A stretch of 48,207 bases of DNA from Promethearchaeota archaeon (GCA_048940925.1 JBHLOC010000032.1:1-48207); one strand, 5' to 3'; shown: positions 6,442 through 32,285, counted from the stretch's first letter. Notes: generated by a model from the letters alone, not told the origin. Translations and numbers: made by a program.

Positions 6442-6525
6442 TCCAACGGAACAGTGAATTATAAAATTTTGATTACCATAATAAATATTAAATTTCAACT
6501 AGCCTTTAGCAATAAAAAACTAAAA

Positions 6526-15702: not shown

Positions 15703-16851
15703 TTAATAAAAAGGATTGTGATATTTTGGATCTTTTTTCTTATATAAAGTCTTTAATTTAATTTCTTTATCTATAAGACCTTCAATATGGCATAGGTATT
15801 CATACTCATCTTTTAAACATAATGTAATAGCAACACCTTTTTTATTCATCCTTGATGTACGCCCTATTCGATGTACATAATTATCTGGAAACTTTGGCAC
15901 ATCATAATTTATAACATGAGAAATATTTTCTATATCAAGACCCCTAGCTGCTACATCAGTAGCTATAAGTAAATTAATTTTATGGGTCCTAAACTGATGT
16001 AATATTTTTTCTCTCTGAAATTGTGTTAATTTGCCTGAAATGATGCCTACTCTAAATTGAAAATCTCTTTGGGATTTTAGTTTCTTAAACAGCCAAGATG
16101 CGGTTTTTCTCGTATTTACAAACACTAATACATGTTTAGGGTTTTCTTTCTTTAAGATTTTTATAAATGTTCTGAATTTTTCTTGATACCGATCAATTAA
16201 GTAATAAAACTGCCTAGTATTTCCGACAGTTAAACTATCTCGACTTAAATTTAAAAATTCAAATTTATTTTTTGTATATTTTTTAACTAATTGTCGCATA
16301 TCATAATCCAAAGTTGCTGAAAACAACATAAATTGGTATTCTGTGTGAATCTTACTCAAAATATATTTCACATCTGGGGCAAAACCCATATCCCATAAGC
16401 GATCTCCCTCATCTAAAACAACAAATCGAATATTTCTGAAGGAAAGTTCCTTTCTTTTAAAAAGATCAATAACTCTACCCGGTGTTCCTACAATGATATG
16501 AACGCCATTCTCTAATTTCTGAATTTGGTTATTAATAGAAACACCGCCATATATGGTCATTGATTTAACTCTTGGATTTCTTAAATCCTTGATAACAGTA
16601 TTAATCTGTTTGGCAAGTTCTCTGGTCGGAACTAAAATCAAGACTTCATTATTTATATATTTTAACTGCTCAAAAATGGGTAATAAAAAAGCTAAAGTTT
16701 TTCCAGTACCCGTTTTAGATTGAGTCATTAAATGATGGCCCTCTATAATTAGAGGGATCGCTTTTTTTTGAACAGGTGTAGGATATATAATATTTAATTC
16801 TTTTAAAGCGAAAGTGTTTCTTTCGCTAATACCTAAATCTTCAAAACTCAA
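15703..16851 (-). CDS. DEAD-box RNA helicase (DEGD variant, minimal core)
   Basis: Q motif PTPVQ, SKTGTGKT, PTRELA, GTPGR, DEGD, SAT, ARGLD, HRIGRTSR. Confidence 0.95.
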   Translation of the reverse strand: MSFEDLGISERNTFALKELNIIYPTPVQKKAIPLIIEGHHLMTQSKTGTGKTLAFLLPIFEQLKYINNEVLILVPTRELAKQINTVIKDLRNPRVKSMTIYGGVSINNQIQKLENGVHIIVGTPGRVIDLFKRKELSFRNIRFVVLDEGDRLWDMGFAPDVKYILSKIHTEYQFMLFSATLDYDMRQLVKKYTKNKFEFLNLSRDSLTVGNTRQFYYLIDRYQEKFRTFIKILKKENPKHVLVFVNTRKTASWLFKKLKSQRDFQFRVGIISGKLTQFQREKILHQFRTHKINLLIATDVAARGLDIENISHVINYDVPKFPDNYVHRIGRTSRMNKKGVAITLCLKDEYEYLCHIEGLIDKEIKLKTLYKKKDPKYHNPFY

Positions 16852-16937
16852 TTTTAATATTCACTAACAACTTTCTTTTTTTACGCTCTTCTTCATTTAA
16901 GAAAATAATTTTATAAAGATAAAGTTTTATATTATAT

Positions 16938-19130
16938 TTATTCAAAAATCACTTGGTTAGTTAACTTATCCAATTTTATCAATTTCTGATTTATGATAAT
17001 CCTGACTTTTTTCGAATTAATTTTAGGATTATTTAGGAATAAATCTTGTACTATTGTGTGATATTTTTTTGCCTTCTTCGCTAATTCCTTATGCAACCCA
17101 TTATTTTTATTATAGAGAGGAATAGGGAAAATAAATGGCCTTTTATGAATATGCCTTGAACTTTTTACTAATTTAATATTTTTTGATAAAATAGGTGCAT
17201 TAAAAATAGCTGATAAGAAATTAGCTTCATTTTCAGAATCAGTAGAATAATAATAGTTTTCTGATCCAATAATAACTCTTTGTTCCTTATTATTTATCAC
17301 AGCAGATTTTAAATTCGAACCACTTGCATTGTAAACAACCAAATAAGATTTAGTATACACCTGTTTTTTTAATTTATCCCAATAATTCAAGTTTGCAAAT
17401 AATGTGTTGATATCGCTAGTTTCTTTTTTATGCCTTTGATAAAATGTATTTATCTCCTTGTAAAAACTCATTGCTCTTGGATATTTTTGAAGGAATAAAG
17501 GATCAAAATCAAATTGCTTATTGATTGGTAAAAAAACATCTTTTAAACTTTTAATATAAAAAGGAATGAGATCAATATTCAAAAATGATTTAAAATGAAA
17601 AATCTCTTCAAATTCTTTATCTTCAAAGGTATATTTCCAATTTTTTTTTGCTCTGGACATAACATCAGGATCAGAAGATACCACAAGAAATCCATCTTTT
17701 TTTTCTTTTATTTGGAAAAATACTAGTGTTCTAGGAACTAACGTAGCACCTTGGAAGAATTTATCTTTATAAGGGCTTTTTGCCATTTTATTAATTGCCT
17801 TTAATTGATTATTAGGCAGTAATAATTTTGCTCCATCTTCTTCAATTTTTAAACTTGAGTAGAATATTTCTTGGAGTAACTCTAATTTATCATTTAATAT
17901 CTTAGTTTTAATTGGATATTTTTGAAATATTGTGATTGGACTATCTGGACCAATATATTGAGCTTTCAGACAAACATGGTTAACATTAAAAAAGTAATTA
18001 TTAGGAAAATCCCAGATTTCCAAGTTTTTATTAAAAATTGAAAAAGCTCTAAACTTATAACAGTGGTCTCCATTCAATACACTCTTAGGCATTACAAAAA
18101 AAATAGTACCTCCCTTTTTTAAAAATTTTATAGGTATAGCATAAAAGAAAATTGTTGCTAATTCGATATGTGTAATATATTGGCTTAAAGGTTTTATTCC
18201 TAATTTATCAGATAATATCCGTATTTGGGATTGATATTCTTTATCAAACAAATCTTTATATGTGAGCCACGGAGGATTTCCTATCACTAAATCAAATGAA
18301 TTATACAGTTTATTAATTTCTTTATTTAATTGATTAGTACAATTATCTGGAAATAGAGAATCGCAGAGGTAAATATTGAGTTTTTGGAAATCTATATATT
18401 CTAATTTAAAATATTCTAAAAGAAATAAGGAGATGTTAACTTTTGTTGAAATAATGGCTAAAGGATTTATATCAAATCCAAAAACTTGATGAAAAGCTTT
18501 AAGTTTTGAAGAAAAAGAATTCTGGGATTCAAAAATCTTTAAGAGTATATTGACTATAAAACTCCCAGAACCACATGAAGGATCTAATATCTTTAAACCA
18601 AACTCATATACGTCTCCAACCATTTTTTTTACAAGGTGCAATGGTGTAAAGAATTCCCCCTTTTTATGTCTAATCTCAGAAATAAAGATTTGTTGATATA
18701 TTTCACTAAAAAGGTCTTCCTTAACAAATCTAGCGTTCTCAATTTTATCAAATATTTTACGATATAGTTGTTTTTCTATAGGCGCCCAAAAAAAATATTC
18801 GAATTCAAAGATTTTATATTTTTTTAACTCAATTTCGATATCTTTTTCATCTAAATCTTCAAAATTAAGATTTTTAATTAATTTTATTTTATGAAAGAAT
18901 AGAATCTTTAATAATTGAGTAAAATAAGTATGTTTAAGATATAATTCTAAAGAGACATTTTTGCCATAGATTTTATAGAATGCAATCTTCCACTTTTTAA
19001 AACTTTTTTCGAAATTCTTTTCGGAGATTGATTTCTTTTTAAAGTATCTAATAAATTCATTGTGGATATCTGAATCCAGTCCAAAAATCCTTGTTATTGT
19101 TTCGCAATTAACTATTTTTTCTTTTCCCAT
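16938..19130 (-). CDS. N6-adenine DNA methyltransferase (Type IIG/Eco57I-like MTase + TRD), no nuclease domain evident
   Basis: GEFFTP, LDPSCGSGSF (motif I), GFDINP, VIGNPPW (motif IV); C-terminal TRD-like region (EANFLSAIFNA). Confidence 0.88.
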   Translation of the reverse strand: MGKEKIVNCETITRIFGLDSDIHNEFIRYFKKKSISEKNFEKSFKKWKIAFYKIYGKNVSLELYLKHTYFTQLLKILFFHKIKLIKNLNFEDLDEKDIEIELKKYKIFEFEYFFWAPIEKQLYRKIFDKIENARFVKEDLFSEIYQQIFISEIRHKKGEFFTPLHLVKKMVGDVYEFGLKILDPSCGSGSFIVNILLKIFESQNSFSSKLKAFHQVFGFDINPLAIISTKVNISLFLLEYFKLEYIDFQKLNIYLCDSLFPDNCTNQLNKEINKLYNSFDLVIGNPPWLTYKDLFDKEYQSQIRILSDKLGIKPLSQYITHIELATIFFYAIPIKFLKKGGTIFFVMPKSVLNGDHCYKFRAFSIFNKNLEIWDFPNNYFFNVNHVCLKAQYIGPDSPITIFQKYPIKTKILNDKLELLQEIFYSSLKIEEDGAKLLLPNNQLKAINKMAKSPYKDKFFQGATLVPRTLVFFQIKEKKDGFLVVSSDPDVMSRAKKNWKYTFEDKEFEEIFHFKSFLNIDLIPFYIKSLKDVFLPINKQFDFDPLFLQKYPRAMSFYKEINTFYQRHKKETSDINTLFANLNYWDKLKKQVYTKSYLVVYNASGSNLKSAVINNKEQRVIIGSENYYYSTDSENEANFLSAIFNAPILSKNIKLVKSSRHIHKRPFIFPIPLYNKNNGLHKELAKKAKKYHTIVQDLFLNNPKINSKKVRIIINQKLIKLDKLTNQVIFE

Positions 19131-19179
19131 TTTAAAGATCTAGATTATCATATAAAAAAATTGAAGATAAAAAAGTAGC

Positions 19180-19719
19180 TTATTTTCTCATAAAGCTGGG
19201 CAGCATTAGTGAGAATATTTGTGAAATTTTCCTTAACTTTGATTTTTCTCTAACTGAGGTAACTATTAAAATTGCATTAGCTAATTCTTCTTTAACTAAA
19301 GAACTTCCTGCATAAACCGCTTGTTCACTATTAAACAATAAAAGAAATCTTACATTAGGATTATTAATCATACTAATTCCTTCTGTAAGCTTCAAATCGT
19401 CATATATAGGGCGATATTCTTTCGGAATATCTGCTCTATCGTTAGAAATAAGAATAATAGGTATTCCTCTTTGAACAAGTTTTTTCAATTCTTTAGCGTA
19501 AAAGTCATCAATCTTGGGAGTTACTATATTCAATTGTTCTTTTGTTGAATTAATTAAATTTAATATTTGATCGTTGAGAAAATTTTTTCTTGAAGGGTCA
19601 CCGGATGATTCAATGTCAAACATTCCCACTAAAGTTAAAATTTTATTTTCTAACGCAGTAATTTGTTCTTTAAGTCTTTTATTTTCGATTCTTAACTCAA
19701 GGACTCGAGGATCTGACAA
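19180..19719 (-). CDS. Coiled-coil + PLD-fold-like protein lacking the HKD motif
   Basis: Leucine-zipper N-terminus (LRIENKRLKEQITALENKIL); LINSTKEQLNIVTPKI, RGIPIILISN, and NVRFLLLFNSEQAVYAGSSL in place of HxKxxxxD...GSxN. Confidence 0.65.
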   Translation of the reverse strand: MSDPRVLELRIENKRLKEQITALENKILTLVGMFDIESSGDPSRKNFLNDQILNLINSTKEQLNIVTPKIDDFYAKELKKLVQRGIPIILISNDRADIPKEYRPIYDDLKLTEGISMINNPNVRFLLLFNSEQAVYAGSSLVKEELANAILIVTSVREKSKLRKISQIFSLMLPSFMRK

Positions 19720-19822
19720 TTTATATCAACTTCGCTCTTTTTTATTATTTTTATAATTATTGTAAATTAAATCACTATTATTAATTTTTATTCATAAAAT
19801 CCTTCTAATAATGATTATAAAA

Positions 19823-22408
19823 TTAAGACTTTAATTTTCTCCAAGGTTGACCAAAAAGTAAATAGCTTGATACGGCTAAACTACTTCTTAGATCTATTCT
19901 TCTAACACCTTGCAATGTATTCGATTCTTTTATCTGTTGTTCTACCATATTTTCTAGTTTTTGAGATATACAAGTTTGACGAGCTTTAAGAAGTGATACC
20001 CCTTGACTATTATTATTTAATAAATTTATAAAGAACTCGGACATTATTTGTTTTGTTTCATCATTAAATAAAGGATAAGTTCTTCCAATAATACCAATAA
20101 TTTGTTCTTGATTAAATTGTGATATTATATCCCCCAATATTCTAGGAACATTCCTTAACTTTTGACCCTCGATATTAAAGATTTGGGCATCAACAAACAA
20201 TAAAGGCTGAGTTTTAGATTCTTTTAAACAGTTGTTAATCTCATTAAATGTGATTATCTCTTGATCATTTGTAATAAAATAACTAGCTTTAGGACTCAAT
20301 TTAGAATAGAAGATATTACCTACAAAAATAATAATATGATAAATTCCGTTAGATAGTGTTGATATTATATTTTCGCGGGTAGAATTAGCACCAATCAGTG
20401 AATTGAACTGTTTAATTTCAGTCCTACCATTAAAGAAATCTAATATATAATTTAATTCATTAGCTCCAGCAGAAAATGGAAATATAAATTCTTTTTGTTT
20501 AGTATTTTCGTTCCATTTTAAAGGTCCTTTTGAATTTATCAAATCGATTATTAAGACTTCAAATGCATTGCTTATTGGTTCAAGAGTAAGTTCTTGAGGA
20601 TTCTCGGTTTCAAATGAGATCCCCCCTAAAGGAACTTCACCAATTTTGTAACCACTTGAATATTTTAACAAGAAAAAATTATTATCATAAATTAAATCAA
20701 AGGGGATAGTCATATTATCTACAATAAAGTAAATCTGGGGGATTACATTCAAACTCTCGATTTTAAATAATTTAAAAAAATCTCTTATCACTTTTGGCAA
20801 AAATATATATAATAATTCACCAAAATCAGTTAAATTAAAATTAAATTTTCTCTTTTCGGGCTCATAAAAGATTTCATTATATATCTCAAGAATCTGAGTA
20901 TCATTCCAAAATTCATTTGCGATAACACCCTCAATTATTTTATTTTCAATAGAAATCATTCGATATGAAATCATACCGTTTGAATTGATTCTTATAACTA
21001 TTTGTTTGATCGTAAAACTATCTTTATCTAATTCTGGAACTTTACTCCCATCATCGAATGAATATATTTGAGATCTTATTGGCTCTATTTCATTATATAA
21101 TGAGAAAAGGTCAATTAGGATATTTGCAAAATCTTTATCTAAATAAGGTACGATTTTCTGGGCTAGACTAAAATTTTTTTCTTCAAAAAGAGCTCGATAG
21201 AACATCATTCTCCAAAAATCACGTTGTTCTAAAGAAAAAAATAATGACTTAAATTTCCATAAAATATTACAAGTATAAAAATAATGAAATATTTGAGGGC
21301 TCGTCTGAGGTAATTTTAAATGGGTATCGAGTTTTTCTAAAGATTGTAATAGGAACTTTTTCTCTTTCATATCAACAAATTTTTTACATGCTTCAACCCA
21401 TAGTTCAATTAAAAGATTATCATAAGAAAGATCAGTCTGATAAATAAATAAATCCTCTAAAAAATCATAAATCTCAAATGCCATTTCAAAACGGTTTCGG
21501 TTAATAGCAAAATTAATGAATTTTCTGATATAAGTGACTGCATCGCCATAAGACTGAAATTTAAGGATTTTTGAGAAAATATTTTTAATAATTATGATAA
21601 TCCAAGAATATTCACCGATATTATTCAAATAATATATTAAGTCCTCTAGATCTGCCAGGATTGTATTAAAGCTTCTTTCATTGATAGAAATCCTGCTAAT
21701 GTAGCTAAACTCATTCTTGAGATATACAGGAAGTCTATTAATTAATATTTTATTAATGATTCTAACAAATTCAGAAGAATCTTCCATAAAATTATATTTA
21801 ATACATACATTTTCCAATACCATATAAATAAATAAAGATCTTTTCGCAGGTTCTAAATTGAATATTGTTCTTCCTAATTTTTCTAAACCTGAAGTGAAAT
21901 ATTCTGAAGGAGTAACTGACTTCCTCAAAAACATTAATAATATTTGCAATTCAATTAACTTCTGAAATTCTTTTCTTTCTAATAATTTTGCAGAAATAGA
22001 ATTAACAAATTTAGTAATTCCAATTTGAGATAAATCTTCATTTTTTAGGAATTCTTTTAGAAGATTAAAGCTAAAATTGTCAAATAAATAAAAATCTTCT
22101 AATTTAGATAAAAATGAGAAAAACCGTTTATATGCATCAATATATCTGATTAAATCGATTTTTACTTTTCCTTCTTCTCGTTTTACAAGTGAATTTAAAT
22201 ACATCCACCATGAATTTGAAATGATCATTACTAGTTGATGCTTCTTCTGAACATCTATCCAATCACTTTTCTCAATTACCATAGCTAAATTATCAAGAAT
22301 TTTTCCAGCCCATTGATGATTTGAAGCAAATAATAATTTTCGGGCAATAATTATCTTATTCTGGAAATTAGTTAAAAATTCCTTCTTTAATTCTAAATCA
22401 ACAGTCAT
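19823..22408 (-). CDS. Alpha-solenoid (TPR-like) + CHAT (caspase-fold) domain protein with a degenerate catalytic dyad
   Basis: CHAT hallmarks IPFDLIYD, STRENII, YHIIIFVGN (cf. IHFAGH), LLFVDAQ (cf. VFLNAC), GVSLLKAR, SYLLFGQP; all-helical N-terminal ~450 aa. Confidence 0.78.
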   Translation of the reverse strand: MTVDLELKKEFLTNFQNKIIIARKLLFASNHQWAGKILDNLAMVIEKSDWIDVQKKHQLVMIISNSWWMYLNSLVKREEGKVKIDLIRYIDAYKRFFSFLSKLEDFYLFDNFSFNLLKEFLKNEDLSQIGITKFVNSISAKLLERKEFQKLIELQILLMFLRKSVTPSEYFTSGLEKLGRTIFNLEPAKRSLFIYMVLENVCIKYNFMEDSSEFVRIINKILINRLPVYLKNEFSYISRISINERSFNTILADLEDLIYYLNNIGEYSWIIIIIKNIFSKILKFQSYGDAVTYIRKFINFAINRNRFEMAFEIYDFLEDLFIYQTDLSYDNLLIELWVEACKKFVDMKEKKFLLQSLEKLDTHLKLPQTSPQIFHYFYTCNILWKFKSLFFSLEQRDFWRMMFYRALFEEKNFSLAQKIVPYLDKDFANILIDLFSLYNEIEPIRSQIYSFDDGSKVPELDKDSFTIKQIVIRINSNGMISYRMISIENKIIEGVIANEFWNDTQILEIYNEIFYEPEKRKFNFNLTDFGELLYIFLPKVIRDFFKLFKIESLNVIPQIYFIVDNMTIPFDLIYDNNFFLLKYSSGYKIGEVPLGGISFETENPQELTLEPISNAFEVLIIDLINSKGPLKWNENTKQKEFIFPFSAGANELNYILDFFNGRTEIKQFNSLIGANSTRENIISTLSNGIYHIIIFVGNIFYSKLSPKASYFITNDQEIITFNEINNCLKESKTQPLLFVDAQIFNIEGQKLRNVPRILGDIISQFNQEQIIGIIGRTYPLFNDETKQIMSEFFINLLNNNSQGVSLLKARQTCISQKLENMVEQQIKESNTLQGVRRIDLRSSLAVSSYLLFGQPWRKLKS

Positions 22409-22444
22409 AACTTGTTAAATGCTCTTTCTAACTTGTTTAATATA

Positions 22445-23623
22445 TTAATTACTGGACTGATTTTCTTGGCTTTCTTCAGAGATTTTAGGATTATATTCCC
22501 ATCCTTTATTTAACTTTTTTTGTATCCATAACACACTCGTACCAACCCAACTAATATTATCTCTTCCTGAAGCAGCCACTACTTTTACTTGATCTCTAAT
22601 CTTTTCTGAGAAATGTTTTGCAATCTCAACATTTAATCTCTTTTCCAAACCAGGAATTAAACTTGCTCCTCCTGCGAGTATAATATTAGGTAATAATTCA
22701 CCCCAATCCTCTCTATCCCATGTTTTAATAACCTTAGCTATTACCTCTGGTAACCCTATATAGTCAATATGAATTAATGAAGGATCAAATAAAGGTTCTA
22801 CAAGTTGAAATCTCTCTGCATTAATCTCTAGTTTTGAACCATCAGGTAAATCAATCGTACTATTATATTTTGTAAATCCATCTTTAATTCGCCTAAATTC
22901 TCCCTCGGGATCAGTGATACATATGGAAAGTTTTTCTTTGATCTCCTTTGTTATCCTTTTATCAAGATATTCAACTCTTTCAGCACTTCTTCTCTTTAGT
23001 AATAAATTGAGAAGATAATTTGTTAAATCGCTCCCTGCTATCGGGTATGTGTCCCTTGCCATAATATTAGTGAAACCATGAAGGAACGATGTGATATATG
23101 TATTCTCTTCTCCCATATTGACTATCAATGCACTAGTTTTTTGTAATGCAGATAAGATACCTTGACTATCAGGAAGAAAAAGTAGAGCGGGAAATTCAAA
23201 AACATTATAAAAAATATCTCTTAATTTAGTTTTTTCTAAATCAGACATAAAAAATGGTGTTATAATAATAATGGGCTGTTTAAACTGATTTTCATTCGAA
23301 ATTTCTAATTGTTTATAATAATAATGAAAAAATTTCATCATTACATTGTAGTCAGAATGTTTTTTAATTTCCCTGATCTTAAGAATATTTGAATAGCTTA
23401 AAGCATCTTGTCCAAATAAGTGGGGTTCTACATCTTTTTCAGTAATAAAGATATCTTCTAAACCATCGATTACATCTGAAGCAAATAAATAATCAGTCCT
23501 AACAACATAAACACTAGGAGCAATAATATCTGGATAATCATTTCCCGCCCAACCTAAACGGAAATTATCATTCCCAATATCTAAGATTAATGGACGTAAT
23601 TGATTATTGCTCTTAAACGACAT
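22445..23623 (-). CDS. Divergent actin-family (actin-related) protein
   Basis: LILDIG..RLGWAG..P, EFPAL, IAGSDLTNYL, IKEK, DLPDG...ERF..EPLFDPS, ILAGGASLIPGLEKRL and SWVGTSVL are collinear with actin. Confidence 0.93.
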   Translation of the reverse strand: MSFKSNNQLRPLILDIGNDNFRLGWAGNDYPDIIAPSVYVVRTDYLFASDVIDGLEDIFITEKDVEPHLFGQDALSYSNILKIREIKKHSDYNVMMKFFHYYYKQLEISNENQFKQPIIIITPFFMSDLEKTKLRDIFYNVFEFPALLFLPDSQGILSALQKTSALIVNMGEENTYITSFLHGFTNIMARDTYPIAGSDLTNYLLNLLLKRRSAERVEYLDKRITKEIKEKLSICITDPEGEFRRIKDGFTKYNSTIDLPDGSKLEINAERFQLVEPLFDPSLIHIDYIGLPEVIAKVIKTWDREDWGELLPNIILAGGASLIPGLEKRLNVEIAKHFSEKIRDQVKVVAASGRDNISWVGTSVLWIQKKLNKGWEYNPKISEESQENQSSN

Positions 23624-23677
23624 TTCTCTATGGTTAAATTGATTTAATTACATTGTTTATAAAATAGATAAAAGTAA

Positions 23678-24550
23678 TCATGAATATGATGTTTGATGAA
23701 TTAAGTTATCAGTTTCTCGCTTCAGTTGATATTCCTTGATTTGTAATTCCAATAACCCCAAAACTCTTTTGAATTCACTAGACATGGACTCTATGTCAAC
23801 TTCAGCTATTCTTTCTACTTCATCTCGCTTTACTTTAAATAATTCTAAATCAGCTTGGATCTTTTTATATAAATTATTTATAGATACAACTAAATCTTCT
23901 GTATTTTTCTTAGTAATCTTCCGCATCTTCCTTAATATTGCTAAAATATTAGAAATTGAATTTTCCCATCTTTCGTACCTTTTATTATATCCTTTTAATA
24001 ACTCCTCAAAAAATTGCGTTAACTTAGCGTATATATTTTCCTGTTTATCCTTAAGGAAAGAAGGTTTTTCTACACTAACGGGAGGAGTTATTTGTGCAGG
24101 AGACGAAATTTCTTCAATTTCCTGAGGAGGTGGGACTACAGGCCTTGCGTCAGGGTGTGCTTTAGAAGCCACCTCTTCCTTCTTTTTTGGAGGAACTTTC
24201 GTTTTTTCTTTCCTTTTTAATTCTTTTGAAGGTTTCTCTCGATCTTTAACTGAAACCCTTTCAGATAATGGTACATCTTCTAAAATGAATTCTTCTGCAA
24301 TTTTACTCCTAGATTCATGAGATAAATGAGGTAAAACCTTTTCTTCTTCCTCACTTGGACGAACAAATCTCTGCTCTTCTGATACACCTTTTAATAACGT
24401 TTGTAATGTCGTTTCTGTTTTTTTTACCGAATGTAAAGCACCATTTAATGAATATTCTTGAACTTCTTTAATCTCAGAAACTACTTCTTCCTTAGGTTCT
24501 TCCTCTTTTTTTCTCTTTTGAGTCTTTTCTTTTTTCTTCTTTTTTGGCAT
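23678..24550 (-). CDS. Hypothetical protein: K/E-rich disordered N-terminus, Pro-rich linker, C-terminal coiled-coil bundle
   Basis: MPKKKKKE start; RPVVPPPQ; heptad-patterned C-terminal ~115 aa. Confidence 0.75.
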   Translation of the reverse strand: MPKKKKKEKTQKRKKEEEPKEEVVSEIKEVQEYSLNGALHSVKKTETTLQTLLKGVSEEQRFVRPSEEEEKVLPHLSHESRSKIAEEFILEDVPLSERVSVKDREKPSKELKRKEKTKVPPKKKEEVASKAHPDARPVVPPPQEIEEISSPAQITPPVSVEKPSFLKDKQENIYAKLTQFFEELLKGYNKRYERWENSISNILAILRKMRKITKKNTEDLVVSINNLYKKIQADLELFKVKRDEVERIAEVDIESMSSEFKRVLGLLELQIKEYQLKRETDNLIHQTSYS

Positions 24551-24602
24551 TATTAGCCCTTTTAAATTAATTCAATTAGTTAGATATAATAAAATAGTAA
24601 CT

Positions 24603-25016
24603 TCACTGAAATGCTATAACCTCAACTTTAACTGCTTGACCTTTATTAACAAGTTCTTCCTGAAGTTTATCCATGGTTATATCCTGCGGAGTTGGGCTTA
24701 TCACCGTCCAAATCGCTGTTTTGTCTTTTTCGATTACCACACTTTCACCATACATTAGAGAAATTCCCAAATCTCCAAAAACCGTAGCGATTTTAGCTAA
24801 AGAGCCAGGTGCATCTTTGATTGTAATCTTAAACTTTATTGGTCTCTGATCCTCTGAAATTCCTACAGGTGTAATCCTTATTTCTTTTGTCTCAGAATCA
24901 CTTACCAACAATAGTTGGGAATTTGTTGTAAGACCGAGATTCTTCCTAGTCACCAAAGGGAGCACAATTCTCCCGCGATTATCAATTGAAATTATCTTGA
25001 CATCTTTAATTATCAA
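24603..25016 (-). CDS. AbrB/MazE/SpoVT-type DNA-binding domain fused to an ACT domain
   Basis: SIDNRGRIVLP..RKNLGL (AbrB); IKDAPGSLAKIATVFGDLGISL (ACT). Confidence 0.88.
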   Translation of the reverse strand: MIIKDVKIISIDNRGRIVLPLVTRKNLGLTTNSQLLLVSDSETKEIRITPVGISEDQRPIKFKITIKDAPGSLAKIATVFGDLGISLMYGESVVIEKDKTAIWTVISPTPQDITMDKLQEELVNKGQAVKVEVIAFQ

Positions 25017-25272
25017 CCGCCTCTTTTATACATTTTTACATTTTTTTCAATGTTCATATTTTTTACTATTGTTTTACTGCTATAAATTTCTAACTATAAT
25101 TGATGGAGATATTCTTCTTATAATGATTAACAAAATTATTATTAATAATTTTAATGAAATCTATAGATTTGAAATATGAATGAGGATTTGAAAATGATAA
25201 GATTAAAAAAAATTTGTTTATAATAATACTTATTTAACAATTTAATTCTGTTTGACAGGTTTAGTTTTATTA

Positions 25273-26385
25273 TTATTGACTTTTTAAATCTTGTTTCTTC
25301 ACTAAAATTTCAGTGTAAAGCTTTTCGGGAGTTGAAGGTGGTTTCATTTCCTCATCTTTTCTAACTAGATGTATCGCTTCCTCAGGACATGATACCACAC
25401 AATTACCACATCCAATACATTTTCTAAGATTTATCTTAGATTTTTCTTTTCTTATCTTAATAGCTCTTACTTGACAGCGTTCAGCACATGTTCCACATCC
25501 AGTACATAATTCCAAATCTACCTCCGCAAAATGATTTGATGGTAATAGTTCAGCAGTGTTAGGCATATATTTTAAATTATTTAAAACATCACAACAACAT
25601 CCACAACAACTACAAATGAAATGTGGTGAGATAGCGTTTCCAACCTCAAACACCAATCCATCTTCTTGATTCTTTCTTAAAATATCTAGTGCCTCCTCTT
25701 TATTAATTTCTCTACCCCATTCATTATCAATGTAAAGTTGTGCCAAATGCCCTAAAGATATACAATTTTCAAGTAAAGATGTTTTCTTGCAAGGAGTACC
25801 TAACAAAACCATCCCCTTACGACAGATACAAGTTTGCACAGAAATAGGACCTTCTAAATCTTCAATAATTTTTGTTAATTCATCATAAGTAGGGATATGA
25901 TGTTCTGGTGTAACACTTTGTTCAACTGGAACTATCCGAAATTGAGAAATATTAGTGCTTAACATTTCTTTAGCAAATCCTTCGTTGATATACTGTTTAA
26001 ATGCATCTACATAATCCTTGGTAATTTTATTAACTCTATGCTCATGCATTCCCAAGACGTAAATTTCGTTTCCATAATATTTTTTGCCATCTTTTTTTTT
26101 GAAATTGATAGATCCTTTCTTAACCATAACATCTAATGACTTTTCAAGTTCTTCCTTAGCTTTACCTAAATCTTTCGTATTTTCATAAATCTCATCTAAA
26201 GTTTGGAGAGTGTATTTCAATTTTGATGCTATTTTTGCCTCTTCTGGAGTAAAAAGGAAGAATAATAGTTTGAGTTCCACACCTGATTGAGTAGCTGGAA
26301 AACCAATCGGTAATTCATCAAGATGTTGTTGAAGCTCTCGATATATTTTCGTCTCATCTTCATTTAATTCTTGCCTTGTTTCCAT
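25273..26385 (-). CDS. 4Fe-4S dicluster protein with N-terminal wHTH-like region
   Basis: CICRKG, CSCCGCCC, CTGCGTCAERC, CIGCGNCVVSCP; start moved from 26478 to the ATG at 26385 (METRQ). Confidence 0.85.
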   Translation of the reverse strand: METRQELNEDETKIYRELQQHLDELPIGFPATQSGVELKLLFFLFTPEEAKIASKLKYTLQTLDEIYENTKDLGKAKEELEKSLDVMVKKGSINFKKKDGKKYYGNEIYVLGMHEHRVNKITKDYVDAFKQYINEGFAKEMLSTNISQFRIVPVEQSVTPEHHIPTYDELTKIIEDLEGPISVQTCICRKGMVLLGTPCKKTSLLENCISLGHLAQLYIDNEWGREINKEEALDILRKNQEDGLVFEVGNAISPHFICSCCGCCCDVLNNLKYMPNTAELLPSNHFAEVDLELCTGCGTCAERCQVRAIKIRKEKSKINLRKCIGCGNCVVSCPEEAIHLVRKDEEMKPPSTPEKLYTEILVKKQDLKSQ

Positions 26386-26625
26386 ATTTGTTAACACTTT
26401 TTTAAAAATTTTTGGAAATCTATAACATAGATTTAAGATATTAACAGTTTTAAGTCTTTCATAAATATATATTGACATTTAGGTCAAATTTACTATTACA
26501 AAAATGTCTAGCAGAAATTTTAATTAAGAAATAAGTAGAATAAGAAGATGAAATTGTTACAAAATAGACTTTTTATCCTTATAAAATCAGCTCAATTTAT
26601 TAAAAATAATGGTCTAAAATACCTA

Positions 26626-28788
26626 TTATTCCTTATGAGCTTTTAATTTCACAGTGAGATCTCGAGCTCGTTTTGAATACCATACTAGTAGTTCTCCAGC
26701 ATCTTCAGGTTTGAAATACTCCCCACCACACAGAGTCGCGGCGCGTGCCATTAATTCATCGTCAGGATTTCCTAATCCCACTATATAGATAACAACATTA
26801 GGGTTTTCAGAGAATTTTCTAATTTCATTGAAAAAAGCATCACCATCAGTTGGAATCCCGTCAGTAAGTAAGACTATCATCGTTGGTTGATCGGGATTCA
26901 TTTTCTGAAATTCATCTAAGACTTGATGAGCATTTGTCATTGCAGATCCCATGTTGGTCGCTTGTCCATACGCGTTTCCTATCCTATCTACAATCATCCT
27001 AGCAGCATCTTCGAGAACTCCCTTTTTACCACTTGCAGAATCCATATAAAAACTCCCACCGAACGGGAGCACTTGGGCTTCGTCTGCAAAGCGAATTACC
27101 GAGACTTTTTCACCGAATCCTCTTCCTACTTTTTCACTTAGAAACAGCACGGCAGCAAAAGCAGCTGATATCCTGCGTGGTATCATAATTCCATCTTTAA
27201 AATGCTTTAGAAATTCTTGAATTTCTCGAGATTCCATAGCTGCTTTAATTCCCTCGATTGCGGGGGCTATGTTTGTAACAAAAACATCTCTCGCCATCAT
27301 GGACCGGCTAATATCAATAATTAAAATAGCATTAAAGGGGACTAAGCCTACAGGACTTAAGCTTAATGTTGTATTTTCAGTGACAGTGGCGAAGATATCG
27401 CCAGTAAGATCAGGAACAGTAGTTAGAACTGAGCAAGCAATATTAACAGCAGTCCATCTTAACTTTATCCCTTTGAAAATGATATAGTTAGATATCCAAC
27501 CTTTCATGGAGGTAACATTTTCTCTTGCTGTACTTATTATCTCCCACATATTTTCACCAGAGATTGGTGATATTCCGAGTGAAATGCTTTGTAGGGGAAT
27601 AATTGTTCTTGGATTCTTATAGACTTTTACTTCAAAACTTCCAATACCTGAAGCTTCGAGAATTTCACTATCAATAACAATAACATTATCTGGAGTTTCT
27701 TCTACAATATCCACTTTTCCTGCCCCCATAGCACCTGTGAGTTCATCTTCAAAAGCAAGTATGTCATTTTGATTAATAGAAAGAGAATGTTGAGTTCTTG
27801 CGCTTACTAAAGCATATCCCATCAAATTTGGTTGTGATTGGACCTCTAACATCATTTCAGAAACCTTTTGAATAGGAGGTTCTGTGGAAAAAACAACTAC
27901 TTTTTCCGCTTGAACATTAGTATCTTCATATGTATCCCTACTCATTTTTATTTCATTACTACCAATGTTCGCTTGGTCGATTCTTGCTGATCCCCTTGAT
28001 CTGGTCAAGGGATCTTCCCATCCTATCAACATCCCTTGACCTAAACCCAATTGTTGCAAAATAGTGGGACTTAACTGGACTCTTCCGCCTTCAATATTAT
28101 TATCCACTGTAGCAGTAAGAATAATCCCTTTTATTTGACTTTGTAACATTTTTATATCTATTTTATTAGGATATGGTTCAGTTGGAGCAATTTCTTGAGA
28201 AATAGGTTGTTCTATTGTAGGTTGAGGTGGACGAGTAGGCATAGGAGATAAACTGGGTTGAGGTGCAGGAGTAGGCTGAGGACTTGGTGGAGGTGTAAAT
28301 GTTGGTTGAGGTGCGGGAGTAGGTTGAGGCATAGGTGTAGGTCGAGTTGATGGTGAAGGTGTTAGGGATGGTTGAGGTTCTGGAGTGGGTTGAGGTATTG
28401 GTTGAGTCGCGGGAGGAGGTGTAGGTAATGGAGATAATGAAGGTTGGGTTCCTGGTGCAGGAGTTGGTGCTTGTCTTTTTGTTGGAACCTTTGGTACTTT
28501 TAATTCTGGTTGAAGGGTTGGAGTTGCAGTTTTAGTTCCAGGACGTACTATTAATTCTACTCCTGAAAATTGTAAATCATCCAAAATATTTTTAGCAAAT
28601 TGTCCAGCAAAATCTAACATATCATCAGAAATTTCTACTATTGCTGTTTTTTTTAGATTATTGTCACTATTTACAACATCTACTGGATCCCCATTCTTTA
28701 TTCCTAATTTATCAGCATTAGATTTACAAATTATTACTTTATTTGTTATTTCTGGATTACCATCAACAAATAGTTTAATCTCAGGCAT
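26626..28788 (-). CDS. Cdc48/NSF-N-like double-psi beta-barrel domains + Pro-rich linker + vWA domain protein
   Basis: Three barrel-like units (ADKLGIKNGDPV; LQQLGLGQGML; QHSLSINQNDIL); Nc-like subdomain ending ATVTENTTLSL; MIDAS DISRS...ATNM...LLTDG; IYIVGLG. Confidence 0.8.
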   Translation of the reverse strand: MPEIKLFVDGNPEITNKVIICKSNADKLGIKNGDPVDVVNSDNNLKKTAIVEISDDMLDFAGQFAKNILDDLQFSGVELIVRPGTKTATPTLQPELKVPKVPTKRQAPTPAPGTQPSLSPLPTPPPATQPIPQPTPEPQPSLTPSPSTRPTPMPQPTPAPQPTFTPPPSPQPTPAPQPSLSPMPTRPPQPTIEQPISQEIAPTEPYPNKIDIKMLQSQIKGIILTATVDNNIEGGRVQLSPTILQQLGLGQGMLIGWEDPLTRSRGSARIDQANIGSNEIKMSRDTYEDTNVQAEKVVVFSTEPPIQKVSEMMLEVQSQPNLMGYALVSARTQHSLSINQNDILAFEDELTGAMGAGKVDIVEETPDNVIVIDSEILEASGIGSFEVKVYKNPRTIIPLQSISLGISPISGENMWEIISTARENVTSMKGWISNYIIFKGIKLRWTAVNIACSVLTTVPDLTGDIFATVTENTTLSLSPVGLVPFNAILIIDISRSMMARDVFVTNIAPAIEGIKAAMESREIQEFLKHFKDGIMIPRRISAAFAAVLFLSEKVGRGFGEKVSVIRFADEAQVLPFGGSFYMDSASGKKGVLEDAARMIVDRIGNAYGQATNMGSAMTNAHQVLDEFQKMNPDQPTMIVLLTDGIPTDGDAFFNEIRKFSENPNVVIYIVGLGNPDDELMARAATLCGGEYFKPEDAGELLVWYSKRARDLTVKLKAHKE
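28200..28470 (-). repeat. Coding Pro/Gln/Thr-rich repeats (PQPTPAPQP)
   Basis: Repeated ggttgaggt motifs; translation PQPTPEPQPSL / PQPTPAPQPTF / PQPTPAPQPSL. Confidence 0.85.
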
Positions 28789-28922
28789 AATGACTCATTT
28801 GGGTTTTAAATTTATTTTGATATAAAATTCTTTATTAACCTTTATTTGATGATTTATTTTTGAAATTACTTTATAAATTTTATATTAATATCTATATAGG
28901 ATTAATTAATTTCAATTATTTT

Positions 28923-29315
28923 TTATGACATTTGTGGATAGCGTTTACTAATTTCCTGCGAATAATACCTAAAAATCTTTACAACTTTTCCTAAATCTGC
29001 GATTTGTCTTGAAGCACCCATCAGAAAAAACCTTCCTGCAACACTAAGTATTATAAATCCATTGTCACCTCTTAAAACGACTTCAAGCATGTTAGTATAT
29101 CCTAGAGCAGCGATCGCATCAGTACCGCTCTGAACGACTACTGCACTTAAGCTTGAAAATAAATCGGGATCAATATTATATCCTGGAATACATGAAAAAG
29201 CTAATCTCAATCCTTCACGAGTAACTAAGGCTAGTGCTTCTAAATCTGAATATTCTGTTATACTCCCTAAGAATTTTGAGAGAGAGGCAGCCTCTTCTGG
29301 TGTGAGATCTGACAC
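28923..29315 (-). CDS. Roadblock/LC7 domain protein
   Basis: EALALVTREGL, FSSLSA, EVVLRGDNGFIILSVAG and LGKV motifs; GTG start. Confidence 0.9.
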   Translation of the reverse strand: MSDLTPEEAASLSKFLGSITEYSDLEALALVTREGLRLAFSCIPGYNIDPDLFSSLSAVVVQSGTDAIAALGYTNMLEVVLRGDNGFIILSVAGRFFLMGASRQIADLGKVVKIFRYYSQEISKRYPQMS

Positions 29316-29517
29316 TTTTAGCAGTTAAGAATTTTTTTTCAATTAATAATAATTAAATAATTTATCCTTAAAAATTTATATTTCTAATTTTGACTCATTA
29401 CTTTAAATCAAGAGCTATCTATTATTATTAAAGATAATAAAAAAAGAAAGGCTTCAAAGTAAGGCCGAACGGCTTATAATTATAAGATAAATAAAATAAA
29501 ATTGAAATAATGTAATT

Positions 29518-30345
29518 TTAAGTGCTTCCTAACTGTTCTTTGATTTGCTCTTTTAAAATTTCTCTTTTAGATTTACTTTCCACGGGCTTTGTTGTTGTAC
29601 CTGTGCGTTTAAGAAACTCAATAGCTAAAATTTTACCATTTTCACTAAAGATTCTAGGACTATAATCAGCTGCGAAGAAGATTCCTTCGGGAATTGCGCC
29701 CACCTTCGAGATTTCTTTCGTAACTTCTTTTTTACCAAGAAATTGTTGAACTTTCTCTACAACTGAATATGCCTGATTTCCAATTATAATTAATTCTCTT
29801 TCAAATCCTTCTGGCATCTGAATTTCTTCAAGTTTTGACATAACTTCCTGAAAATTAACTGGGGTTTCTTCTGGCATGTAGGTTCCCATTGATGCTTCTC
29901 CTCTATATAACGGACCTATGTTTTCAGCTTCTCGATCTCTGCTTCCTGCTATATTCATACCTTCTGCTGGCTCTGGAGTTCCAAAAATATTTCTTTGTCT
30001 TAAAGGATGACCAGTGGGAGGAGAGACTGCTTCAGCTTTTATCTCCTGTGCGATACCTGCCTCCGTTTTTCCGCCAATCAACTTTATAAACTCAGCATCT
30101 TCTTCACCCTCATCAAGAGGGATTACACTATAATGCATTCCGACTTGCCCTCGGATTTCTTGAGATCTTTTTGCTCCAATGAATTTTGATCTCACACTAC
30201 TTTTAATCCCTTTCCATAGAAAAACTTTTCTTACATCGTCTGATACAAGAACATAGCATTCTTCAGTTTTTAATAAATCCTTGATTGGGCCTTCAGATGT
30301 GAGCTCTGAAGTCGTCCCATCGGGGTTGATTAAAAATAACTGCAT
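29518..30345 (-). CDS. Gelsolin-domain protein with C-terminal domain X (Asgard 1DGelX-like)
   Basis: Gelsolin repeat LKTEECYVLV...VFLWKG..SS...DEGEEDAEF; flexible linker; second domain PEGFERELIIIGN...PRIFSENGKILAIEFLK. Confidence 0.8.
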   Translation of the reverse strand: MQLFLINPDGTTSELTSEGPIKDLLKTEECYVLVSDDVRKVFLWKGIKSSVRSKFIGAKRSQEIRGQVGMHYSVIPLDEGEEDAEFIKLIGGKTEAGIAQEIKAEAVSPPTGHPLRQRNIFGTPEPAEGMNIAGSRDREAENIGPLYRGEASMGTYMPEETPVNFQEVMSKLEEIQMPEGFERELIIIGNQAYSVVEKVQQFLGKKEVTKEISKVGAIPEGIFFAADYSPRIFSENGKILAIEFLKRTGTTTKPVESKSKREILKEQIKEQLGST

Positions 30346-30560
30346 AATTCGTTTGATCTCCTTGATTGAATTTTAGTTTTGGGTTAGTTGAGTTATAATA
30401 TTTGAATATTCTATTTTAATAAATTTTAAACCTCAACAATTAATATGATAACTAGTTTAATAATATAATAAATTAAAAATTAATAAATCTTTATCAATTA
30501 ATTTATTCTCGTTCTGACATCTCTTATATGAGTATCTATAAATATATAATTTTTGTAAAG

Positions 30561-32126
30561 CTAAAAGTTAAATATACTTTTAATTGTTTCATTAATACTA
30601 TAAATCATTTCTAAAGGTGTAAAGCGAGGACCTATATTATCTTTGCAATATTCACCAAGTACGCCATTTAGAAAGGCTGCAGAGCATGCCGATTTGAAAG
30701 AGTCATTCTTAGTTGCCATAAAGCTAGCACATAAACCCGCTAATACGTCACCTGTTCCTCCTATACTCATTTCTGGACATCCAGTTCTATTGATTTTTAA
30801 CAATTTACCATCTGAAATATAATCATATGGACCCTTTACTAATAATGTTGCATCTAACTTCTTTGCCAAATCACGGATAATCTTTCCACGTTCCTCAATA
30901 TTACCATATGGAGGTAAATCTATATCAGTCATGATTTTTAGTTCTCCTTCATGAGGAGTTAAGATAACCTGTAAACCTTTAAGAAGGTCAAGATGATCCT
31001 TCACTAACTTTAAAGCATCTGCGTCTAAAACCAATGATTTATTTTCGTCTTTTACCTTTTCCAACAATTTAACCAATAAATCTTCGGTTTCTTTTTCTAA
31101 ACCGATACCTGGTCCAATCAAAATAGTATCTGCCCATTCTATTAACCTACAGATCTCTTTTAATGCTTCAAGGTTTAACCAATCTCCAGGACTTGTTCTT
31201 ACAATCATATTGGGTGAAAAATTTCTGATAACATCTCCCACTACATCAGGAGTATATGTAATCACCAGATCAATGCCAAAATTAATTGCGGTCATAGATG
31301 AATAAGCAGGAGCTCCAGAGTAATTCTTTGATCCCCCAATGATTAATATTCTTCCAAATTCTCCTTTATGATTATCTATATTTCTTATTTTTAAAGTCGG
31401 TAATAAATCTCCTGTCCCAACAAAAAGATTTGCTTCATAAGGGATTCCAATGGATCTAACAACAATTTCATTTATATACTCACTTTTTATATCTAAACCT
31501 TTTTTTATTCGATGAAGTGATATGACTAAATCTGCTTTAATGGCCTTATGAAGAACTTCTCCTGTATTTGGATTAATTCCAGAAGGTAAATCAATTGATA
31601 CAACCTCAATCTTCTTTTCTTCTCTTATTTTATTTATTATGTCTATCGCTGTAGAAATTGGTTCTCTAATATTCCCTACTATTCCCGTTCCTAGCAAACC
31701 ATCAACAATTAAACTCAAACTTTTTATGTCTTTATTTAATAATTTAATCTTCGCAAAATCCGTAGAATCAGATATTACTACTGTTTCCACCAAATAATTC
31801 ACTTTATTGTTAATTATCTCCCAATTAAACCGAGAAGCATCTGTTCTTATTTTTTCTGGAACACCAACAAGAATGACTAACGTTCTAACGTTAAATGCCG
31901 CTAACTGTCTTGCAACTACAAAACCATCTCCACCATTATTACCTGTACCGCAAAAAATGGCAACAGTAGATTTTTTACTGAAACTATACCTTTTTATAAT
32001 CTCATCAGCTATAGAATACCCCGCACACTCCATTAGGTGGATTAATGGAATCCCTAACCATTGAGCATTATTGTCTGCAATTGCAACATCTTCCGATGTA
32101 ACTCTTTCTGAATTAAATGGATTCAT
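30561..32126 (-). CDS. nnr: Bifunctional NAD(P)H-hydrate epimerase/dehydratase
   Basis: LMECAG, CGTGNNGGDG, DGLLGTG, SIDLPSG, HKGEFG, GPGIG, LDADAL, LTPHEGE, GGTGDVLAG; start set at ATG 32126. Confidence 0.95.
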   Translation of the reverse strand: MNPFNSERVTSEDVAIADNNAQWLGIPLIHLMECAGYSIADEIIKRYSFSKKSTVAIFCGTGNNGGDGFVVARQLAAFNVRTLVILVGVPEKIRTDASRFNWEIINNKVNYLVETVVISDSTDFAKIKLLNKDIKSLSLIVDGLLGTGIVGNIREPISTAIDIINKIREEKKIEVVSIDLPSGINPNTGEVLHKAIKADLVISLHRIKKGLDIKSEYINEIVVRSIGIPYEANLFVGTGDLLPTLKIRNIDNHKGEFGRILIIGGSKNYSGAPAYSSMTAINFGIDLVITYTPDVVGDVIRNFSPNMIVRTSPGDWLNLEALKEICRLIEWADTILIGPGIGLEKETEDLLVKLLEKVKDENKSLVLDADALKLVKDHLDLLKGLQVILTPHEGELKIMTDIDLPPYGNIEERGKIIRDLAKKLDATLLVKGPYDYISDGKLLKINRTGCPEMSIGGTGDVLAGLCASFMATKNDSFKSACSAAFLNGVLGEYCKDNIGPRFTPLEMIYSINETIKSIFNF

Positions 32127-32285
32127 AACAATTATTTTTAAGGTATAGATATAAAAAAATTTTGAGTTTAAAAATATCAAAAAAAAACTGAAAGATGAGA
32201 AAGGTAAAAAATGGAAAAGTTATAAATTAAAAAACTACAAAATAAATCTAAAAAACAATATTATAGAATAATTCAAGTAAATAAT

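Follow-up and report, generated by a model that had tools for sequence, protein, structure and literature searches.

A conserved lokiarchaeal gene cluster joining a divergent actin-related gene to genes for degenerate CHAT- and PLD-fold proteins

Beyond Lokiactin, Asgard genomes carry several further actin paralogs, and we know of no partner or function for any of them. A Promethearchaeota sequence of 48,207 nucleotides (GCA_048940925.1, JBHLOC010000032.1:1-48207; the whole stretch is hereafter the window) encodes one divergent actin-related protein (ARP) within a compact gene cluster, raising the question of whether this ARP works with the products of its neighbours. ORF calling recovers the five adjacent, co-oriented genes that a first-pass annotation had described, all on the minus strand at 19180-25016 and separated by gaps of 52, 54, 36 and 103 bp. 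Full-length orthologs of all five occur in many genomes, so these are real genes. The co-oriented run in the window comprises 12 genes (15703-32180), and co-orientation alone therefore cannot fix the borders of the unit. From the sequence, we place these at T-runs 3' of the last gene, which encodes a PLD-fold protein, and upstream of the first, an AbrB-ACT gene. The AT-rich, 256-bp region upstream of the first gene (25017..25272, minus strand) contains a T8 run at which the preceding Fe-S gene probably terminates, and then what we presume to be the unit's promoter. Immediately 3' of the PLD stop codon, T6 and T7 runs (19131..19179, minus strand) form a probable archaeal terminator that would close the unit ahead of a methylase gene.

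Gene 1 (24603..25016, minus strand) encodes a 137-aa protein that is probably a ligand-sensing regulator heading the unit. It matches ACT (3.7e-5; 23.8 bits against a cut-off of 27), weakly MazE/AbrB (0.029; 14.8 bits against 24.7), TIGR01439 AbrB (0.0025) and, over its full length, NCBIfam PRK08577 (1.8e-22; 79.8 bits against 140); its top PDB matches are AbrB N-domains (E 0.2). The AbrB, ACT and PRK08577 matches all fall under the curated cut-offs, agree with one another and together cover the full length. In families f1 and f3, and within f2 in genus g5, gene 2 is immediately preceded by the AbrB-ACT gene. Other regulators replace it in part of the order, for example a receiver-HTH protein and an ArsR in the cultured Lokiarchaeum ossiferum.

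The ARP (gene 3, 22445..23623, minus strand, 392 aa) matches Pfam Actin over residues 9-373 (PF00022, 8.9e-48; 163.3 bits against a cut-off of 27). Among solved structures, Asgard and yeast actins are closest to it (1e-37 to 1e-32), and it is the most divergent of the five actin-family genes in the window's genome. The Lokiactins of this genome retain the motifs of a competent actin, DxGxG in the P1 and P2 loops and the catalytic residues Q137 and H161, whereas the ARP departs from them. Its P1 loop reads DIGNDNFR versus DNGSGMCK in actin, and its P2 loop NMGEENTY versus DSGDG-TH. In the alignment, the second glycines of the P-loops (G15 and G158) and H161 are lost in all ARP orthologs, position 161 being Y in the window protein and variable in the others, and Q137 is not conserved. 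ATP hydrolysis has probably been lost. The ARPs of the cluster are monophyletic (SH-aLRT 98), and the topology of their clade, which is fast-evolving and specific to one lokiarchaeal order, mirrors the order of the families.

The solenoid and CHAT fold that had been proposed for gene 4 (19823..22408, minus strand, 861 aa) are both evident in its AF2 model (pLDDT 84.6), in which an alpha-solenoid (residues 1-448) precedes a separase/TPR-CHAT-like domain (466-861). The CHAT match is 0.006 in the window protein and reaches 3e-6 in one ortholog. The model aligns with the TPR-CHAT protein Csx29 (Z 17.9, rmsd 3.6 Å over 285 residues), the separase protease domain (Z 15.4) and gingipain R (Z 13.3), and Foldseek retrieves Csx29 (2e-10) and separase (2.5e-8). 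A family-specific insertion carries invariant N625, P629 and W632. Reading the catalytic positions by alignment with five intact Asgard CHAT proteins, we find the His/Cys dyad replaced in five representatives from three families, His by N or I and Cys by Q, K, L, H or R. The other Asgard classes sampled yielded no CHAT-type protein of full length.

Gene 5 (19180..19719, minus strand, 179 aa) likewise has the predicted make-up of a coiled coil and a PLD fold: an N-terminal leucine zipper is followed by a Nuc-like PLD domain. PLDc_2 is matched at 7e-4 in the window protein (19.8 bits against the Pfam cut-off of 27) and by 13 of 20 orthologs (best 3e-6), and the Atlas model gives a TM of 0.83 to a PLDc_2 cluster over 174 residues, with further PLDc_2 clusters down to 0.67. 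The aligned orthologs have no HxK(x)4D motif and no conserved His or Lys in its place; the equivalent stretch reads NPNV(K/R/T/H). Altered catalytic motifs in the actin, CHAT and PLD proteins, first read from the window, thus recur by alignment in every family sampled. The catalytic residues are gone in all representatives of the three proteins, yet the ORFs remain full-length. Three adjacent genes that keep an enzyme fold and lose catalysis are an unusual case, which argues for scaffold or sensor roles.

Gene 2 (23678..24550, minus strand, 290 aa) is an orphan. Its product opens with a Lys run, continues through about 170 disordered residues with short conserved motifs and ends in a C-terminal hairpin of two helices, 173-249 (77 residues) and 253-289 (37 residues), predicted by AF2 with pLDDT >95. 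The Lys run (in most orthologs) and the hairpin are its conserved traits. The label "Pro-rich" in the first-pass annotation has to be dropped as a family trait, Pro ranging from 1.6 to 13% among orthologs and amounting to 5.9% in the window protein. The protein belongs to a closed family with 91 representatives among 1.84 billion proteins, and has no match in the PDB by sequence profile or by fold (Foldseek, E <= 0.001). A WH2/thymosin-like KKTET motif in a helix at 35-57 is a lead only: it is lost in families f2 and f3, and no WH2 or thymosin family is among the 25 most frequent of 62 families matched (E up to 10). Little signal can be expected in the sequence of one long helix, a point that bears on the search of gene 2 for an HSA helix.

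The cluster occurs in one order of Loki-type Asgard archaea that includes L. ossiferum. A lack of conserved gene order had been named beforehand as one ground for refuting the unit. The survey does not bear this out and finds gene order conserved far beyond the genus with differing flanks: the order gene 2-ARP-CHAT-PLD and the shared strand are kept in three families at 23-46% identity while flanking genes turn over. In family f3, the five-gene unit is flanked by opposite-strand genes, and a membrane protein specific to f2 has no match in the window's genome (one query). Across the order, gene 2 is present in 131/154 genomes (single copy, except for three with short-fragment second matches), the PLD gene in 125/154 and the CHAT gene in 126/153. 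These three genes are absent from all four genomes of family f4, and the cluster was not found outside the order in 400 sampled Asgard genomes. In several lineages, 4 nt are shared between the end of ARP and the start of CHAT, or the two are separated by 1-3 nt; the median gap is 21 bp.

The pattern of loss divides the cluster. Genera g2 and g5 have neither ARP nor CHAT, and there gene 2 sits beside the PLD gene. Five genomes (92-99% complete) are without CHAT, PLD and gene 2, and the three of these searched for ARP do not have it either. PLD is never found without gene 2, and the two genes are neighbours in all loci examined except in one rearranged f2 genome, where CHAT is followed by gene 2 and PLD lies on another contig. 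The cluster is thus modular, with a gene 2 and PLD pair separable from an ARP and CHAT pair, and because the former persists without the latter, the products do not form an obligate four-subunit complex.

In L. ossiferum, the ARP ortholog is UYP47647.1, which falls in the same clade as the window's ARP; published RT-qPCR primers match inside the cluster's ARP gene. UYP47647.1 is one of three non-Lokiactin actin homologues of this organism, and its transcript was found by RT-qPCR at a low level relative to Lokiactin; the protein was placed among Asgard and eukaryotic ARPs with no class given (Rodrigues-Oliveira et al. 2023, PMC9834061). That report treats UYP47647.1 singly and names no neighbours or partners; the cluster, its dead CHAT and PLD proteins and their modular distribution do not appear in it. 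As the first-pass annotation had supposed, we found no prior description of the cluster in the searchable literature. Single contigs of two low-depth L. ossiferum RNA libraries bridge the receiver-HTH, ArsR, gene 2, ARP and CHAT genes, with the PLD gene represented by separate contigs. Downstream of the PLD stop there is a T8 run, at which RNA-library contigs end (positions 6497 and 6507 of locus L076), and contig ends from three RNA runs fall <=6 nt from positions 12784-12789 of the same locus. The high-depth runs X1 and X2 yield contigs of 11-14 kb that span genes of both strands; these are therefore uninformative on transcript borders and make DNA carry-over possible in the libraries. Such contigs cannot prove a single transcript.

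We read the locus as a vertically inherited, regulator-headed Lokiarchaeia operon whose products, non-enzymatic descendants of enzyme folds, work as a modular protein assembly, and we put the probability of this reading at roughly 55%. Its core pair would be gene 2, with its Lys tip, disordered region and long hairpin, and the dimeric zipper/dead-PLD protein. The accessory pair would be the ARP, with ATP hydrolysis probably lost, and the solenoid/dead-CHAT protein, which by analogy with separase and Csx29 may serve as a peptide- or protein-clamping scaffold and not as a protease. The proteins may bind one another, most likely ARP to CHAT and gene 2 to PLD, and we infer that they would come together physically as the non-catalytic Arp-containing scaffold first suggested for the locus. 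Complex prediction for the ARP with CHAT residues 256-861, run on their own alignments and without controls, scored 0.00, which speaks neither for nor against binding. The assembly could act on or with the Lokiactin cytoskeleton, its expression set by the ligand-sensing regulator. The link to actin filaments is confined to the ARP itself and a nearby gelsolin-domain gene, which in the window lies 4.5 kb upstream and in genus g5 immediately follows PLD. A nucleic-acid role would be equally compatible with the basic PLD protein, the Lys run of gene 2 and the DNA enzymes encoded nearby.

A fuller version of this reading is tentative, and we would sooner bet against it than for it. It envisages the first archaeal ARP-containing heteromeric assembly, in which the pseudo-protease clamps a non-hydrolysing ARP and couples it to the dead-PLD dimer and the Lys-tipped helical adaptor. 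Under the ligand-sensing regulator, this assembly would anchor, cap or nucleate Lokiactin filaments at the membrane or another site. If true, the eukaryote-like use of dead actin folds as complex subunits would have been invented independently in Lokiarchaeia.

The strongest alternative, which we consider unlikely, is a pathway for regulation or sensing in which no stable complex forms and ACT, a TrmB-like dead PLD domain and the CHAT groove act as separate, co-regulated ligand or peptide sensors. A regulator gene heads the unit everywhere, even as its type varies, and modular loss implies that the parts can function apart. FilR1_middle, a regulator domain, is matched by five PLD orthologs, and some Atlas structural neighbours of the PLD protein are clusters carrying Regulator_TrmB. 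However, the PLD protein has no HTH, and a relationship to a neighbouring 1017-aa TrmB-like protein was rejected (hhalign probability 0.1%). The overlapping ARP stop and CHAT start and the tight spacing are typical of stoichiometric partners, and these two genes are lost strictly together.

Somewhat less probable again is a nucleic-acid or chromatin module, which would still be an assembly with another target. Gene 2 and the basic dead-PLD dimer would bind DNA, and the 77-residue helix of gene 2, which we take to be about as long as an HSA helix, would hold the ARP as HSA helices do in INO80, SWR1 and BAF. The PLD protein is indeed basic (median pI 9.2, and 9.1 for the PLD domain), with the nuclease NucT as its nearest solved relative (E 0.0045), and the Lys run could contact DNA, although it suits acidic membranes as well. 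By language-model features (Atlas), the ARP lies close to divergent clusters of eukaryotic actin domains, plant ARP7 among them, which is a lead only. DNA enzymes adjoin the cluster, namely a type IIG-like methylase and a DEAD helicase in f1 and Hef (an ERCC4 helicase) and a PHP protein in f2, but they vary by family and are not conserved with it. Nor does any HSA, SANT or Snf2 family appear among the 25 most frequent of 62 families matched by 19 gene 2 orthologs (E up to 10). Forkhead, PBC and MbeD matches in gene 2 each span one helix only and were judged spurious.

A defence or conflict system, with a TPR-CHAT protease, a PLD nuclease, an antitoxin-like AbrB-type regulator and an adjoining restriction-modification methylase, is disfavoured and very improbable. 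TPR-CHAT proteins and PLD nucleases are common in defence, and the closest solved relative of gene 4 is Csx29 of Craspase. Yet neither catalytic site is intact in any lineage sampled, and all five proteins match 0 families in PADLOC-DB (E 0.01). The methylase that follows the cluster in f1 is sometimes inverted there and is not conserved with it elsewhere. Defence islands are patchy, whereas the cluster is near-universal across the order, effectively in single copy, and is inherited vertically. Chance neighbours in a slowly rearranging region are barely credible: the whole 16-kb neighbourhood is syntenic within the genus, which makes gene order at that level uninformative, but across families only the cluster genes stay together as flanks turn over, and they are lost jointly and in pairs.

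The modular assembly we favour would share its logic with eukaryotic complexes, although homologs of their partner subunits were not detected. Arp2/3, HSA helices with Arp4-actin or Arp7-Arp9, and Arp1/Arp11 of dynactin use divergent actin folds as structural subunits, some with impaired ATPase and often held by a long helix. The weight of the cluster for eukaryogenesis is limited because it is confined to one lokiarchaeal order and its ARP clade is fast-evolving. The operon names three candidate partners for one ARP clade, split into two separable pairs, and its presence in cultured L. ossiferum makes pull-downs, localisation and in-vitro actin assays feasible.

The crenactin arcade cluster of Thermoproteales (crenactin and arcadins 1-4) likewise keeps an archaeal actin-family gene with partner genes, and inferring binding from neighbourhood proved right there (PMC5173319). 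Arcadin-2 uses a conserved peptide at its C-terminus to bind the hydrophobic groove of crenactin, and arcadin-1 is a weak binder (Izore et al. 2016, PMC5173319). Unlike the ARP, whose nucleotide loops are degenerate, crenactin is an ATPase that polymerises and has intact motifs. By their published descriptions, the arcadins (a small protein, a Rad50-like protein and a novel fold) are also unrelated to CHAT, PLD and gene 2 (PMC5173319).

Gene 4 offers a prokaryotic separase-like pseudo-protease for study. It has the same architecture as Csx29 of the type III-E CRISPR Craspase and separase, a solenoid followed by a substrate-binding caspase-like CHAT domain; along solenoid and groove, Csx29 clamps Cas7-11 and separase clamps securin. 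Gene 4 differs in its replaced dyad, its own N/P/W insertion, the lack of CRISPR or cohesin context and the ARP as its coupled partner gene. Gene 5 shares its fold with the single-HKD nucleases Nuc/NucT and TrmB-type PLD-like effector domains, and in TrmB a dimerising helix also precedes the PLD-like domain. It differs from these in having neither HKD nor DNA-binding HTH and in its own, near-invariant C-terminal tail, LP(S/T)F(M/L)R. The idea that this Arg-ending tail docks as a pseudo-substrate in the dead CHAT groove is weakened by its equal conservation in genera without CHAT and ARP. The tail could belong to the fold itself, or have gene 2 or another actin as its binding partner.

The five genes at 19180-25016 on the minus strand form a functional module of non-enzymatic proteins: a probable AbrB-ACT regulator (gene 1), a helical protein (gene 2), a divergent actin-related protein (ARP, gene 3), a CHAT-type protein (gene 4) and a PLD-fold protein (gene 5). 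ORF calling reproduced exactly the five co-oriented genes and the gaps of 52, 54, 36 and 103 bp reported in the first-pass annotation. The cluster is embedded in a longer same-strand run (15703-32180), so orientation alone cannot set its borders. A 256-bp AT-rich stretch with a T8 run lies upstream of gene 1, and shorter T-runs (T6, T7) come after the gene 5 stop, ahead of a methylase gene. The Pfam match to Actin is strong (gene 3, 8.9e-48); those to ACT, AbrB/MazE, CHAT and PLDc_2 are weak for the window proteins and have other evidence behind them.

Gene 3 (392 aa) is the most divergent of the five actin-family genes in its genome. Where yeast actin has DNGSGMCK in the P1 loop and DSGDG-TH in the P2 loop, it has DIGNDNFR and NMGEENTY. 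G15, G158 and H161 are replaced in every cluster-ARP ortholog aligned, from three families, and Q137 is variable; the Lokiactins of the same genome retain all four. In a quick tree, the cluster ARPs form a single clade (SH-aLRT 98) separate from Lokiactin and two further ARP clades, with a branching order that matches the families and branch lengths many times those seen in Lokiactin. Two Lokiactin-type genes occur in this genome (contigs C40 and C7, loci L001 and L002; Pfam Actin scores of 441 and 430 bits), and a single one in each of five further genomes of the order used for comparison, Ca. Lokiarchaeum ossiferum among them.

Gene 4 (861 aa; AF2 pLDDT 84.6) combines a solenoid (1-448) with an alpha/beta domain (466-861). 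Structural alignment of that domain gives Z 17.9 to the TPR-CHAT protein Csx29 (rmsd 3.6 A over 285 residues), Z 15.4 to the protease domain of separase and Z 13.3 to gingipain R. By alignment to intact CHAT proteins of other Asgard genomes, 5/5 representatives have N/I in place of the catalytic His and Q/K/L/H/R in place of the Cys. N625, P629 and W632 are invariant in a family-specific insertion. Other Asgard classes encode a Ras/Roc/Arf-type small GTPase fused to an intact CHAT protease domain (L098 742-2439; L101 684-2369; Ras 6e-32, CHAT 1e-30) with the aligned His and Cys retained.

The gene 5 product (179 aa) begins with a leucine zipper that leads into a Nuc-like PLD fold (NucT match 0.0045; Atlas model TM 0.83), and 13/20 orthologs match PLDc_2. 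Where the HKD motif would lie, aligned orthologs have no conserved His or Lys; their C-terminal LP(S/T)F(M/L)R hardly varies. The altered motifs read from the single sequence in the actin phosphate loops, the CHAT dyad and the PLD HKD thus hold throughout the orthologs compared.

Gene 2 (290 aa) is an orphan with just 91 relatives in a profile search among 1.84 billion representatives and no PDB match by sequence or fold. In its AF2 model, a disordered stretch of ~170 residues precedes two helices, of 77 and 37 residues, with pLDDT >95. It had been called Pro-rich, which is no family trait, since proline varies from 1.6-13% among orthologs; a Lys run at the N-terminus is. Gene 1 (137 aa) matches ACT, the AbrB clan and, across its full length, NCBIfam PRK08577 (1.8e-22), all under curated cut-offs.

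Within the genus the entire 16-kb neighbourhood is syntenic, so gene order at that level is uninformative and the cross-family comparison is the informative one. When looked for in related genomes, the order gene 2-ARP-CHAT-PLD and its strand recur in genomes of two other families at 23-46% identity with changed flanks, and chance synteny is a negligible explanation. In family f3 the five genes are an island flanked by opposite-strand genes. Among 400 sampled Asgard genomes, the full-length solenoid-CHAT protein is confined to the order Sigyniarchaeales (118/134 genomes of f1, the family of the window genome, 7/14 of f2, 1/1 of f3 and 0/4 of f4). Gene 2 occurs in 131/154 genomes of the order (38/39 high-quality ones) and the PLD gene in 125/154 (36/39).

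Losses are paired. In two f2 genera (g2 and g5), gene 2 directly adjoins the PLD gene, and the CHAT protein and cluster ARP are missing; the ARP-specific profile matches only other actin paralogs there and scores 437 bits in L. ossiferum. Five genomes of 92-99% completeness lack CHAT, PLD and gene 2, and the three of these searched for the ARP also lack it. ARP-CHAT is the tightest-spaced pair (median gap 21 bp), with a 4-nt overlap or 1-3 nt gap in several lineages. From this paired presence and absence and the ARP-CHAT spacing, the cluster appears to be made up of two co-inherited pairs, gene 2 with PLD as the core and ARP with CHAT as the accessory pair. This modularity is new relative to the first-pass annotation. 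The head regulator also varies: AbrB-ACT in f1, f3 and g5, and a receiver-HTH protein with an ArsR-type HTH in L. ossiferum.

In g5, AbrB-ACT is followed by the gene 2-PLD pair and a gelsolin-like gene, which gives the core pair a second actin-related connection. At 29518-30345 (minus strand) the window encodes a protein of 275 aa with a gelsolin domain at its N-terminus (8.7e-9 to Lokiarchaeota gelsolin 2DGel 7whg_G, 0.02 to Pfam Gelsolin), and its g5 homolog (5e-19; L103 7979-8929) lies directly 3' of the pair.

Published RT-qPCR primers for UYP47647.1, the L. ossiferum ortholog, match exactly within the cluster ARP gene, whose transcripts are reported to be several-fold lower than those of Lokiactin (PMC9834061). 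The L. ossiferum locus (L076) was found in four metatranscriptome libraries of one study. Single contigs from two low-depth libraries (L076 7223-12788 and 9337-12784) start ~80 nt ahead of the receiver-HTH gene, cross ArsR, gene 2 and ARP, and then reach into CHAT or span it; such contigs are no proof of a single transcript, and DNA carry-over is possible. Contig ends of three runs coincide within 6 nt (L076 12784-12789). In the low-depth libraries the PLD gene is on contigs of its own, which end just past a T8 run.

We suggest, with a probability of about 0.55, that the products form a modular assembly. The dead separase-like gene 4 protein would be a scaffold that holds the ARP, gene 2 and a PLD dimer would form the core, and the assembly may act on the Lokiactin system. 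Reading actin partners from an archaeal gene neighbourhood has a precedent in the crenactin arcade cluster, where biochemistry confirmed the inference (PMC5173319). A sensing pathway with no stable complex is a less probable reading of the same genes. Somewhat less probable still is a nucleic-acid-associated ARP module, to which the Lys run of gene 2 and the basic character of the PLD protein would point. A defence system is very improbable: the catalytic sites are dead, PADLOC matches none of the five products, and inheritance is vertical and near-universal. In line with the first-pass annotation, no paper describing the cluster was found in the literature searched, and the database name for the family is "hypothetical protein".

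In one rearranged genome (G170; L081, L104), a divergent CHAT-type protein precedes the sole gene 2 copy and an ORF of 834 aa that belongs to no known family, and the PLD gene sits on a separate contig. In a closed genome (G006, L031), the CHAT ortholog matches residues 1-782 only, and the PLD gene is missing both from the position after it and from the rest of the genome; the 3' end of the unit looks deleted. In f2, a polytopic membrane protein of ~380-410 aa is always encoded 3' of the PLD gene on the same strand, with or without ARP and CHAT (L076 5243-6388; homologs in L045, L077, L078, L102 and L105; 34-50% identity between genera). It matches no Pfam family, and one query found no match in the window genome.

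A vWA protein (720 aa) and a Roadblock/LC7 protein are encoded at 26626-29315 (minus strand), and the vWA, Roadblock/LC7, gelsolin and YjeF genes form a block upstream of the cluster across f1, not so in f2 or f3. Between the vWA and AbrB-ACT genes is a 4Fe-4S ferredoxin-domain gene (401 aa, 25273-26478, minus strand) that has no counterpart among 40 related loci compared and therefore appears to have been inserted recently in this lineage. The methylase is a type IIG-like N6-adenine enzyme (730 aa, 16938-19130, minus strand; PADLOC REase_MTase_IIG 2e-35). In most f1 genomes it comes 3' of the cluster; in some it is inverted or a ~1000-aa form takes its place, and f2 and f3 lack it at this site.
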